From assembly GCA_963665735.1 (NCBI GenBank), contig OY762444.1:1867547-1931546 (forward strand): a stretch of DNA of 64,000 nt, given 5' to 3'. This DNA is from Dehalococcoidia bacterium (GTDB lineage: Bacteria; Chloroflexota; Dehalococcoidia; Lucifugimonadales; UBA3495). Of the stretch, positions 43,964-46,475 are shown one piece after another. Positions within the stretch are counted from its first letter, which is position 1, and each line of letters opens with the position of its first letter. The notes under the pieces were generated by a model, which saw only the letters and a list, made by a program, of their open reading frames with translations, did not search any database and was not told where the DNA came from. Both the position numbers and the translations under genes were made by a program.

Positions 43964-44749
43964 TTACTCTTCGGCTACGATGTAGTTGCGGAGAGTGCCG
44001 ATGCCGCTGATTTCCACTTCGATGGTATCGCCGGGGCGCATATCGCCGTCGGCGCCCTGGGTTCCCATCCAAAGCACGTCGCCGGGGTGCAGGGTGGCGT
44101 AGCGGCTCAGTTCCTGAATCCAGGTGGCCGCGTCCCAAATCTGGTCCGCCGAGGAAAAGTCCTCCCAGACCTGGCCGTTGTGCCGGACGATTATCCGCAG
44201 GTTGGTGGGGTCTAGGCCGGTGACGATAAAGGGGCCAAGGGGCTTGAATGTATCGCAGTTCTTGCCTCGGAACATGGTTCGGTCGTTGCTTTGCCAGACC
44301 CGTTGGCTGATGTCGTTGCCGATGGTATAGCCGAAAACGTAGTCCAGGGCCTCGGAGGCGGGGACGTTGCGGGCCGGTTTGCCCATGACCACGCCCAGCT
44401 GTCCCTCGGGTTGGACGGCGCCGGAGCAGTCCCGGGGAACGACGATGTTTTCCTCGGTGGCGATGATGGCGTGGACGGAGCGGAAGTTGGGTTCGGGAAT
44501 GGCGGGATAGGACGGCGGCGCGCCCCGGCGGGCGGCCATGCCTTCCACGTGGCCCCGGTAGTTGGGGCCGGCGGCGTAGAGCATGGGCGGGATTATGGGG
44601 GCCAGCAGCTTGACGGCGGAGAGGGTTTGACTAACGCCGGTCTTTTCGTAGCCGTGGATGGGATGGCCGGATACCTGGCTGATGGTGTTATCGTCCTCAA
44701 CGATTCCGTAGCTGGTCTGGTTTTCCGACTGGTAGCGGCACCATTTCAT
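43964..44749 (-). CDS. Fumarylacetoacetate hydrolase (FAH) family protein
   Basis: 261 aa. MKWCRYQSENQTSYGIVEDD... and GKNCDTFKPLGPFIV are typical FAH-fold motifs. Confidence 0.8.
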   Translation of the reverse strand: MKWCRYQSENQTSYGIVEDDNTISQVSGHPIHGYEKTGVSQTLSAVKLLAPIIPPMLYAAGPNYRGHVEGMAARRGAPPSYPAIPEPNFRSVHAIIATEENIVVPRDCSGAVQPEGQLGVVMGKPARNVPASEALDYVFGYTIGNDISQRVWQSNDRTMFRGKNCDTFKPLGPFIVTGLDPTNLRIIVRHNGQVWEDFSSADQIWDAATWIQELSRYATLHPGDVLWMGTQGADGDMRPGDTIEVEISGIGTLRNYIVAEE

Positions 44750-44855
44750 AACTTGTCTCCCGGTTTAAGGTGAAGGTTTTAGGGCGGGTTGTCCTTTCCG
44801 ACAGGGTGCCACCCCCTCCCTAACCCTCCCCCTCGTAGGGGGAGGGGATTTTTCG

Positions 44856-44972
44856 CGCACCCCCTCAGGGGTAGGATTTGTGACGCACCCTTTCAGGGGT
44901 AGGGATTTTGTGACGCATCCTCTCAGGGGTAGGGATTTTGTGACGCACCCTTTCAGGGGTAGGGATTTGTGA
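44856..44972. repeat. Tandem repeat, 4 x 28-30 bp (CGCACCCYYTCAGGGGTAGGGATTT(T)GTGA)
   Basis: Units lie at 44856..44883, 44884..44913, 44914..44943 and 44944..44972. Each contains a short ACCCC/GGGGT hairpin. There are no spacers. Confidence 0.85.
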
Positions 44973-44990
44973 CAGGGCCTCTTGGGTTGG

Positions 44991-45815
44991 TTATTTCAAC
45001 CGGGCGGCTACTCTGGCCGTCGCCCGGTTGTCGAACCAGCCTTCCTCATAGTACAGGATTTCCAGGCCGGCGCAGTCCTGGCGCAGCTCCCCCGGCTCCG
45101 CCAAGTATTGACGGGAAGGGCTTTCGTGGCGTTTGATGCGACTTGGCCCACCCGATAGGTAACTTGTCTCAAACGGGTGGGCCGGCGCGCCGGGTTCGAT
45201 GCGACTTGGCCCACCCGATAGGTAACTTGTCTCAAACGGGTGGGCCGGCGCGCCGGGTTCCGGGTTTGCAAGGCAGAGCACTTCGCCCAGGAAGATGCCG
45301 CCGGGTTGGAGTTTGGCCCGGATGGCCGGGAAAAGGTCGCGCTGGCGGTAGAGGAAACAGGTCACAACGTCGAAAGCGCCGTCGCCGATGAAATCCAACG
45401 ACGGCTGGGTTTCCAGGTCGGCCTCGATGGTCTTGACGGTCAATCCCTTTGCTTGCAGGTTCTGGCGGGCCAGTTCCAGGCCGGCGGGGGAAATGTCCAC
45501 CGCCGTAACGTCCAGGCCGCGGGCCGCCAGCCAGCCGGAGATGCGCCCGGCGCCGGCGGCCAGGTCAAGGGCGCGTCCTTGAGTTGGAACCAGATGCTCA
45601 ACATCGGCCAGCCAGCGGGGAGCCGGCAGGGGAACAGGGCCGGATTCGATGCGACTTGGCCCGCCCGACAGGTAACTTGTCTCAAACGGGCGGGCCGGCG
45701 CGCCGGGTTCGATGCGACTTGGCCCGCCCGACAGGTAACTTGTCTCAAACGGGCGGGCCGGCGCGCCGGGTTCCGAGTATCGGGCATCCCATCTAACGCG
45801 GTCGGACTCGGCCAT
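44991..45815 (-). CDS. Class I SAM-dependent methyltransferase (TehB-like small MTase) carrying four in-frame 21-aa repeat insertions
   Basis: Motif I is GRALDLAAGAGRISGWLAARGLDVTAVDISPAGLELA. EPGAPA(R/H)PFETSYLSGGPSRI occurs x2 near the N-terminus and x2 near the C-terminus. Confidence 0.75.
   Translation of the reverse strand: MAESDRVRWDARYSEPGAPARPFETSYLSGGPSRIEPGAPARPFETSYLSGGPSRIESGPVPLPAPRWLADVEHLVPTQGRALDLAAGAGRISGWLAARGLDVTAVDISPAGLELARQNLQAKGLTVKTIEADLETQPSLDFIGDGAFDVVTCFLYRQRDLFPAIRAKLQPGGIFLGEVLCLANPEPGAPAHPFETSYLSGGPSRIEPGAPAHPFETSYLSGGPSRIKRHESPSRQYLAEPGELRQDCAGLEILYYEEGWFDNRATARVAARLK
45135..45260. repeat. 63-nt hairpin element, tandem dimer inside the CDS (site A)
   Basis: Two identical 63-nt copies (45135..45197, 45198..45260). 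The stem is GGCCCACCCG/CGGGTGGGCC around a 19-nt loop. Confidence 0.9.
45648..45773. repeat. 63-nt hairpin element, tandem dimer inside the CDS (site B)
   Basis: Two identical 63-nt copies (45648..45710, 45711..45773). The stem is GGCCCGCCCG/CGGGCGGGCC, a compensatory change relative to site A. Confidence 0.9.
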
Positions 45816-45840
45816 TTTTCACTCCTCCCGCCTGGCTGTC

Positions 45841-46135
45841 CGGCAGGTGCGGGCGCACGGCGGTGCGCCCCTACGGTCAAGAGGTACGGGCGCAAGGCGG
45901 TGCGCCCCTACGCTCAAACGGGTGGGCCGGCGCGCCGGGTTCCGGCAACCTTCATTTGACAGGTAAACCGGAAGTCCGTTCGTGGTGAGCTTGTCGAACC
46001 ATGAACGGACGGCCCTTCGACAAGCTCAGGGCGAACGGGAAATGACCATCATTTCAAGGTTATTCGCCTACTAGTGGCTAGTGGGTAGAAGGCGGCGGAA
46101 ACCAATCACTAACCATTGTCCACTAACCACCAACT
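45841..46135. repeat. Intergenic mosaic: two degenerate family-4 palindromes, a half copy of the 63-nt element (45913..45942), family 6 (45973..46040) and heptamers
   Basis: The composite of family 6 plus CCATCATTTCAAGGTT.TTCGCCT..AGTGGCTAGTGG is shared with 39088..39210. Confidence 0.8.
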
Positions 46136-46475
46136 AAGCGTTCCAGAAGTTGGCTACGGCGGCGTCGGGGAGGAGGAACTCGAATCCGTTGCGCTCGGCG
46201 TACTGGCGGTCAATGTCGGTGTCGCCGATGTGGTAATAAACGGCGGCGGGAAACTCGGCCTTAACCTGGTCAAGCTGGTGTTTCAGGACGGTGAACTGGA
46301 CGGGGATTTGGTGTTCGCTCCAGATGCGCTGCTGGCTGCGAATCATGCGGTCGGAGCAGCTGCCGATGATGTAGCCGGAATCGCGGGCGGCGCGCACCAT
46401 GTCCATGGTCACGCAGCCGGGGGGGTCGCCCACTTCCAGGGTGCCGTCAATGTCGAAACTTATCAGCTTGGCCAA
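46134..46475 (-). CDS. Small HAD-superfamily hydrolase-like protein
   Basis: MAKLISFDIDGTLEV carries the DxDxT motif. Length 113 aa. Confidence 0.6.
   Translation of the reverse strand: MAKLISFDIDGTLEVGDPPGCVTMDMVRAARDSGYIIGSCSDRMIRSQQRIWSEHQIPVQFTVLKHQLDQVKAEFPAAVYYHIGDTDIDRQYAERNGFEFLLPDAAVANFWNA

Follow-up and report, generated by a model that had tools for sequence, protein, structure and literature searches.

A methyltransferase gene in the genome of a Dehalococcoidia bacterium (G000, the source genome, a single 3.92-Mb contig) encodes the same 21-residue peptide four times, as two tandem pairs at separate sites. This raises the question of whether the repeated segments belong to the protein family itself or descend from a DNA element that entered the coding sequence and, in the latter case, what kind of repeat the element is and how it spread. 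The original prediction, made from the letters of the DNA, proposed that a hairpin-forming element had been inserted in frame as tandem dimers. We evaluated this proposal in the window (the whole 64,000-nt stretch of DNA analysed, to which coordinates refer unless a genome position or another contig is named), in the rest of the source genome and in related genomes.

Two tandem dimers of a 63-nt hairpin unit in a methyltransferase gene

The predicted 274-codon ORF was found on the minus strand, with the 21-residue peptide EPGAPA(R/H)PFETSYLSGGPSRI occurring four times (Table 1); PFETSYLSGGPSR is one example of the insert-derived peptides in the predicted 274-aa product. A degenerate pattern matched 63-nt units at 45135-45197, 45198-45260, 45648-45710 and 45711-45773 with 0 mismatches, where 0 matches were expected by chance, in line with four exact units arranged as two in-frame dimers. 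Every unit was confirmed to carry the perfect 10-bp stem around a 19-nt loop that had been described, with a minimum free energy of −29 to −31 kcal/mol as compared with −20 to −24 kcal/mol for shuffled sequences. By inspection, the flanks of the 63-nt unit were AACCCGGCGCGCC and AAGTCGCATCG.

The two copies within either site were identical, as had been reported. The difference between the sites had been described as a compensatory change of one stem pair; this pair, A/T to G/C, was found, but it is not the full difference, as the N-site and C-site units are separated by three substitutions, the third being a T/C change at the 3′ base of the loop (GATAGG vs GACAGG). Only one of the three alters the peptide in the methyltransferase frame (H vs R). 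The half copy that had been placed outside the coding sequence was likewise recovered, in the 5′ leader of the methyltransferase gene about 100 nt upstream of the ATG.

Removing the four units left a protein of 190 aa, the size that had been expected from the sequence and close to the 187 aa of orthologues. The Pfam domain Methyltransf_25/11 covers aa 83-176 and is flanked by the two insert sites. The ORF and SAM motif I are intact, a good Shine-Dalgarno sequence (GGAGG) precedes the gene, and the best structural matches of the protein were TehB (2xva) and Slr1183.

Table 1. Positions of the host gene, the 63-nt units and neighbouring repeats in the window, and arrays of the wider family sampled in sister genomes (AF2, AlphaFold2)
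Feature	Unit and copies	Position	Strand or orientation	Basis
Host gene, TehB/Slr1183-like class I SAM-dependent methyltransferase		44991..45815	(-)	ORF, Pfam, AF2, structural matches
C-site tandem dimer, stem GGCCCACCCG/CGGGTGGGCC, aa 187-228	2 × 63 nt	45135..45260	(-)	pattern match, orthologue alignment
N-site tandem dimer, stem GGCCCGCCCG/CGGGCGGGCC, aa 15-56	2 × 63 nt	45648..45773	(-)	pattern match, orthologue alignment
Partial copy, sense, C-site variant	first ~30 nt of unit	45913..45942	(-)	100% over 30 nt
Context: other GC-rich palindromic repeat, CGTAGGGGCGCACCGCC.TGCGCCC	two 37-nt units	45845..45917	.	repeat family D4, sequence
Array L059	66 nt × 6.9	5′ of start codon	sense	
Array L060	63 nt × 3	5′ of start codon	sense	
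Array L063	63 nt × 2.4	5′ of start codon	sense	
Array L067	53 nt × 4	5′ of start codon	sense	

Both dimers are absent from orthologues

A six-frame search of 40 related genomes recovered the methyltransferase in 7/7 congeners and in G017, and all of these matches were split, with query residues ~15-56 and 187-225 missing. Of the orthologous ORFs, those of G006 and G017 encode 187 aa, and those of G002 and G003 about 200 aa. Both dimers were absent from the orthologues in G006, G003, G002 and G017 and from those of the metagenomic relatives P0003 and P0004, and in DNA alignments with orthologues each dimer was an exact 126-nt gain, as expected for a hairpin element inserted into the coding sequence with the frame kept. 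The empty C-site of the orthologues reads AACCTGG^AACGCCAC, and the insertion phase at this site has a 3-nt ambiguity. When 126 nt were removed per site, the resulting 190-aa protein was collinear with its orthologues. The synteny of the methyltransferase gene with the downstream FAH-family gene was kept in G006, G003 and the P0003 contig. Orthologues carrying the 21-aa segments in repeat-free genomes were looked for, and the orthologues found were devoid of them. These results support reading the four units as insertions into coding sequence rather than as an ancestral protein repeat.

In the closest relative, the metagenomic contig encoding P0002, the N-site was empty and uninterrupted (RYSE^SGP), and a different family member (...CCGGCGGCCCGGCCCGGTTGAGACAAGTTACCTTGCCGGGCCGGGCGACGGATTAAA...) was found at the same C-site with a net gain of 87 nt and an open frame. 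The methyltransferase orthologue of G003 has a family hairpin ~45 nt 5′ of its ATG. Together with the leader copy of the source genome, these two cases indicate that the methyltransferase locus was hit repeatedly.

Among the insert-free methyltransferase cores of G000, P0002, P0003 and G006, dN/dS was 0.17–0.26, with a dS of ~0.46 between the P0002 and G000 cores. Since the units within each dimer are identical, the duplications (or a homogenisation of the units) are recent, so a dN/dS of ~0.2 says little about selection after the arrival of the inserts.

Predicted fold of the host protein

In an AlphaFold2 model built on a 44-sequence alignment, the core of the methyltransferase was predicted confidently (147 residues with a pLDDT of at least 90), and aa 24-55 and 192-228 were modelled as coil with a pLDDT below 50. 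The N-insert is placed between the helices H3-14 and H67-75, where it separates the N-terminal helix from the Rossmann core, and the C-insert between the strand E169-181 and the helix H243-247, directly after strand β5. In this model of a TehB-like SAM methyltransferase fold, both inserts thus form loops of low confidence that are flanked by well-predicted elements. The orthologue alignment and the structure prediction that had been proposed as checks of the insertion claim therefore agree: both sites are empty in orthologues, and both lie between secondary-structure elements of the predicted fold as low-confidence coil.

Other copies and hosts in the source genome

The exact unit is very low-copy in the source genome. 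A whole-genome blastn search located it at six places in 3.92 Mb, of which four are the methyltransferase units, one is the half copy and one, with 90% identity, is at genome position 3,200,796-3,200,855. The unit is therefore not unique to the methyltransferase gene, a point on which the original prediction had called for a genome-wide search. The gene that holds the 3.20-Mb copy is a 467-codon open frame (counted from stop to stop) for an HExxH-motif protein with no Pfam match. The copy is read in a different frame (GPARRPARLSQVTSRAGQVAS) from the methyltransferase units and is an exact 63-nt in-frame gain relative to the orthologues in G006 and G007. Five of the six copies of this 63-nt subfamily are intragenic.

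A search of the source genome with the loop only added about 10 hairpins with the same loop and different stems. One of them is a 22-residue (66-nt) in-frame hairpin, ALKLPAARFPVETSCLAGN..DGR, in an MMPL/RND transporter of 890 aa (G000 C1:3101880-3102716), where its reading frame (PVETSCLAG) is that of the methyltransferase units. The hairpin lies just after a conserved RYNEER motif and was absent from seven homologues, which were taken from a large protein database because the genus has no orthologue. At genome positions 66301 and 2506322, family copies directly adjoin the start codons (ATG) of an arginase-like and a NifS-like gene; both genes were identified by eye, the former from its N-terminal sequence.

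A wider hairpin family with a conserved loop

A blastn search of the exact unit against 40 relatives gave no match apart from weak core matches in G024, a genome of a related genus, which led to a 12-nt motif of the apical loop, AGACAAGTTACC (sense strand). This motif occurred 3–66 times per genome in all eight sampled species of the source genus and 10 times in G024, as compared with 0–1 occurrences in each of ~190 genomes that represent 25 other genera of this bacterial family; reversed-pattern controls gave counts of 0–2. The loop is often closed by GAG...CUU pairs. Units of the family are 53–75 nt long, most often 63 nt, and occur singly or head to tail, where 63 nt is also the commonest tandem period, with periods of 66, 69, 75, 53 and 65 nt found as well.

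The family conserves its loop and not its stem, and the GC-rich stem varies by compensatory changes. In an alignment of ten members with variant stems, 81.6% of the cells were paired, as compared with 37–52% when the partners were slid, and 11 of 18 pairs had double-sided changes; none of 500 shuffles reached the observed values. The hairpin structure has thus been maintained while the loop sequence has been conserved, and some units in sister genomes fold weakly (z about 0).

The usual position of family members is between genes, just 5′ of a start codon and in the sense orientation, and this holds for the arrays sampled directly upstream of start codons in G001 and G004 (L059, L060, L063 and L067; Table 1). 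They have also repeatedly been found inside coding sequence. In the nucleoside hydrolase gene of G001, three 63-nt units in frame make up an exact 189-nt gain that is absent from 7/7 congeners. In a TlyA-like rRNA methyltransferase gene of G004 (L061, G004:C13:66300-67700, positions 580-770), the only in-frame ATG is separated from the conserved N-terminus RKARQRADLL.. by three 63-nt units, which suggests an in-frame N-terminal insertion. Different hosts read the unit in different sense frames, and all three occur (ETSYL, RQVT and DKLP), which identifies it as an element of nucleic acid rather than a module of protein.

Several further searches delimited the family. A scan of 44700-46200 against Rfam 15 with E-values of up to 10 returned only sub-threshold chance matches, mostly to miRNA and sRNA models. 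In metagenome contigs, the core pattern of the unit gave 0 matches and a 20-mer of the type-A hairpins gave three, of which both that were examined (L159 and L160) were chance matches without hairpins. A covariance model of the type-A hairpins (R1) matched only its seven training copies in the source genome; it missed the units of the methyltransferase gene, in which the stem is shifted in register by one base. Readings of the unit as a SECIS-like element, a riboswitch-like element or a translational bypass are not needed, as it has no UGA and no known motif and its frames are open.

In G024, a region beside an oxidoreductase gene (L002, G024:C1:2206755-2209794, positions ~1480-2070) holds four tandem repeats of ~147 nt. 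Each of these comprises a family hairpin together with the Shine-Dalgarno sequence and ~7 initial codons (MKKLSLC) of the oxidoreductase gene, whose 5′ end has thus been amplified along with the hairpin.

Orientation, target sites and mobilisation

The sense strand of the family was the C-rich strand at 11/11 loci in the source genome (genome positions 66301 to 3200831). It was the plus strand below 1.80 Mb and the minus strand above 1.91 Mb, with the minimum of the cumulative GC skew at 1.83 Mb, and the orientation switched again across the maximum of the cumulative skew. Because dnaA is located at 2.75 Mb, at neither extreme of the skew, we assigned no leading or lagging strand to this bias. 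All eight assessable copies in the source genome were in sense with the host or downstream gene, whereas long ORFs are divided ~50/50 between the strands. A single-strand-specific process would be the most economical reading of this pattern.

A G^AAYC-like junction was common to three targets in the source genome and the leader copy (TCGG^AATCC, CTGG^AACGC, TTGG^AACCG and CCGG^AACCC). As the unit itself starts with AACCCGG, every boundary between units again resembles the target; judging from these four sites, this could explain the tandem growth. Both methyltransferase inserts are bordered by a 3-nt match (GAA) and the G001 array by (C/G/A)AG; the flanks of the 3.20-Mb copy match over at most 1–2 nt. 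The sole inverted repeat in the 63-nt unit is its central stem.

A search for Y1/RAYT transposases (PF01797) in 14 genomes, including all nine that carry the family, gave no match, where the control search gave matches in 6 of 14 named control genomes. Likewise, whole-genome blastn revealed no larger parent element or related IS sharing the unit in the source genome, only the six short copies. Two independent insertions and a leader copy within 800 bp, with only one other copy in the genome, are improbable under random transposition; local hopping, a hot spot or recombination among the copies is needed to explain such clustering.

Comparison with known repeat classes

The best-documented case of palindromic repeats colonising genes in frame is Rickettsia, where this has been described as unusually frequent. 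The same behaviour is now seen in an unrelated, uncultured Dehalococcoidia lineage. Extra features here are a unit of exactly 21 codons, tandem amplification in coding sequence, a conserved loop on covarying stems and a site in one gene that different family members have used repeatedly.

According to the accounts of Ogata et al. (2000, 2002) given in PMC10969869 and PMC3184786, Rickettsia palindromic elements (RPEs) are hairpin-forming interspersed repeats of ~105–150 nt found in frame in unrelated genes. As described there, they share with the 63-nt family their in-frame occurrence in protein-coding genes, absence from orthologues, fold-compatible positions, occurrence outside genes as well and the lack of a known transposase (PMC10969869, PMC3184786). 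In-frame gains relative to orthologues were found here as 126, 126, 63 and 66 nt in the source genome and 189 nt in G001, and in the methyltransferase model the inserts fall at sites where they form coil with a pLDDT below 50. The likeness to RPEs that had been suggested is therefore apt as a description of behaviour. On the same accounts, the unit is set apart by its length (63 nt vs ~105–150 nt) and by its host, a Chloroflexota Dehalococcoidia lineage and not Rickettsia. The 63-nt family also differs in forming in-frame tandem arrays of 2–3 units, and it conserves a loop on variable stems and uses all three sense frames, whereas RPEs are described there as a conserved peptide-coding palindrome.

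REP/BIME repeats and RAYT-associated REPINs resemble the family as short GC-rich hairpins with lineage-specific bursts of copy number and compensatory stem changes, located mostly between genes and in clusters (PMC3733652). RAYT-mobilised REPs and REPINs include GTAG- and CGTC-tagged superfamilies (PMC3733652); by inspection, however, the 63-nt unit has neither a GTAG nor a CGTC head next to a 20–40-nt palindrome. Its family further differs in its long (~9–19 nt) and conserved loop, in the absence of a PF01797 gene from 9/9 carrying genomes and in the predominantly intragenic location of the 63-nt subfamily (five of six copies). MITEs such as ERIC, BOX and Nezha are likewise small and non-autonomous, have open frames and occasionally form translational fusions in genes (PMC10969869, PMC3184786), but the 63-nt unit is much shorter, has no terminal inverted repeats apart from the central hairpin, shows no clear target-site duplication and has no parent IS in the genome.

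The unit also shares features with coding minisatellites (VNTRs with a period of 3n) and mycobacterial MIRUs, which consist of near-identical head-to-tail units with a period divisible by three, between or within genes. Each methyltransferase site holds two 63-nt units with 100% identity, and the sister arrays have periods of 63, 66, 69 and 75 nt; unlike a minisatellite or MIRU, the 63-nt unit carries a conserved hairpin and is also found as single copies scattered over unrelated loci. NTS or Ssn-related motifs (SRMs), which are cut by the GIY-YIG enzyme SsnA (PMC11893778), are similar as abundant oriented hairpin repeats. The published SRM search sequence, HGTCWY N0-2 YYVSBRH N0-5 WNVSBRG N0-2 RNCYNB, needs the HGTCWY head and a loop of 0–5 nt (PMC11893778), whereas inspection of the 63-nt unit against this pattern revealed a 19-nt loop and no HGTCWY head.

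On the defining features examined, the unit is thus not a member of the RPEs, REP/RAYT repeats, classical MITEs or SRMs, and we describe it as an RPE-like phenomenon in Chloroflexota: a REP-like Dehalococcoidia hairpin repeat of 21 codons that conserves its loop and is arrayed in tandem and in frame inside genes. Its hosts offer natural loop-insertion experiments on known folds, namely a TehB-like methyltransferase, an MMPL transporter and a nucleoside hydrolase. For annotation, odd low-complexity segments of proteins in these MAGs should be regarded as repeat-derived.

Proposed history and alternative explanations

The 63-nt unit most probably represents a private subfamily, amplified recently, within a non-autonomous hairpin family that is restricted to the Dehalococcoidia genus of the source genome and one related genus. 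The copy in the 5′ leader probably seeded the two intragenic insertions at G^AAYC-like sites, and each methyltransferase insertion may then have been doubled through recombination (slipped-strand or unequal) or through a second insertion at the unit junction. With a length of 21 codons and no stop in the sense frames in use, each unit inserted in a surface loop would add only a disordered 21-residue segment, so that intragenic insertions could persist. The conserved loop and covarying stems suggest a putative trans-acting factor that reads the folded single strand, either DNA or RNA; such a factor driving the spread would not be a Y1/RAYT transposase, and the loop motif AGACAAGTTACC could be used for finding it.

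A bolder version, which is possible but on the unlikely side, is that the unit is a coding-competent hairpin repeat, in which the 21-codon period and the stop-free sense frames are adaptations for colonising and expanding in genes. It would be moved or copied by a putative factor other than Y1/RAYT that reads the loop on single-stranded DNA, with the orientation fixed relative to replication and transcription. If true, this would be a new route of mobilisation for REP-like DNA and a source of rapid variation of loop length in Chloroflexota proteins.

Different explanations have to be weighed against a recently amplified repeat subfamily. The hairpin could be primarily a functional cis-acting RNA in leaders or between cistrons, which binds a regulator or stabilises the mRNA, with the intragenic copies as by-products or themselves acting in the mRNA. 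The sense orientation of the eight assessable copies, the several sister-genome arrays that abut start codons, the conservation of the loop on covarying stems and the leader hairpin of the G003 orthologue all speak for such a role. Copy numbers of 3–66 among congeners against 0–1 loop motifs in genomes of 25 other genera of the same family nevertheless make it distinctly improbable, as do the unrelated functions of the downstream genes, the missing Rfam match and the finding that copies compared with orthologues were present in one species and missing at the same position elsewhere. The orientation, moreover, tracks the GC skew, so the sense bias need not reflect RNA function. It is also unlikely, if slightly less so, that the methyltransferase gene had already been inactivated and tolerates the inserts only because it is dispensable and becoming a pseudogene. 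The intact ORF, Shine-Dalgarno sequence and SAM motif I argue against decay, and so do the open frame of P0002 with its own C-site insert and the frames kept by the MMPL transporter, HExxH protein and nucleoside hydrolase hosts; the dN/dS of 0.2 against three relatives points the same way, with the inserts too young for this figure to inform. Even so, 84 extra residues are a heavy load on a 190-aa enzyme, the C-site directly after β5 is predicted to be near the substrate side of TehB-like enzymes, and four mRNA hairpins of about −30 kcal/mol could impede translation.

That the tandem dimers are assembly artefacts, produced by the collapse or expansion of repeats, is highly improbable. Nothing speaks for it directly, apart from the identity of the copies within each dimer, while the genome is a single contig, a 126-nt array is shorter than typical reads, both dimers keep the frame and equivalent 63-nt arrays were found in several independent assemblies, both long-read and short-read. 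The chance that the 21-aa segments are an ancestral protein repeat of the methyltransferase family, as the presence of the same peptide four times in one protein might suggest, is smaller still. The peptide was absent from the eight top-match homologues that were read and from the same-genus orthologues, and among the homologues listed nearly all were 172–221 aa long, too short for four 21-aa segments. With the clean empty sites in orthologues and the same DNA unit in another frame in another gene, this explanation is effectively refuted.

Other repeats near the methyltransferase gene

Several repeats unrelated to the 63-nt unit surround the gene. The 37-nt units of the second palindromic repeat in Table 1 (CGTAGGGGCGCACCGCC.TGCGCCC) have a GTAG head and are present although the source genome has no RAYT gene. 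The partial 63-nt copy ends exactly at the start of these two units, so that one repeat family appears to interrupt another. Other repeat families in the source genome resemble SRMs. In the metagenome contig encoding P0002 (L069, an ENA contig, positions 60-110), the methyltransferase leader contains NTS/SRM-like units (CGTCATTCCGGCAAAAGCCGGAATCCAG) and not the 63-nt family, so that repeat content at this locus turns over fast between close relatives. On the other side of the gene in the window, the spacer that separates the methyltransferase stop from the start of the FAH-family gene (44830-44970) is taken up by four tandem units of ~30 nt (..CACCC[TC]TTCAGGGGTAGGGATTTTGTGACG..), which likewise bear no relation to the 63-nt unit. 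Finally, an inverted repeat at 45976-46038 (CCGTTCGTGGTGAGCTTGTCGAA / TTCGACAAGCTCAGGGCGAACGG), with 23-nt arms that are 87% complementary and a 17-nt spacer, adds one more hairpin repeat family to the 318-nt leader region of the methyltransferase gene.
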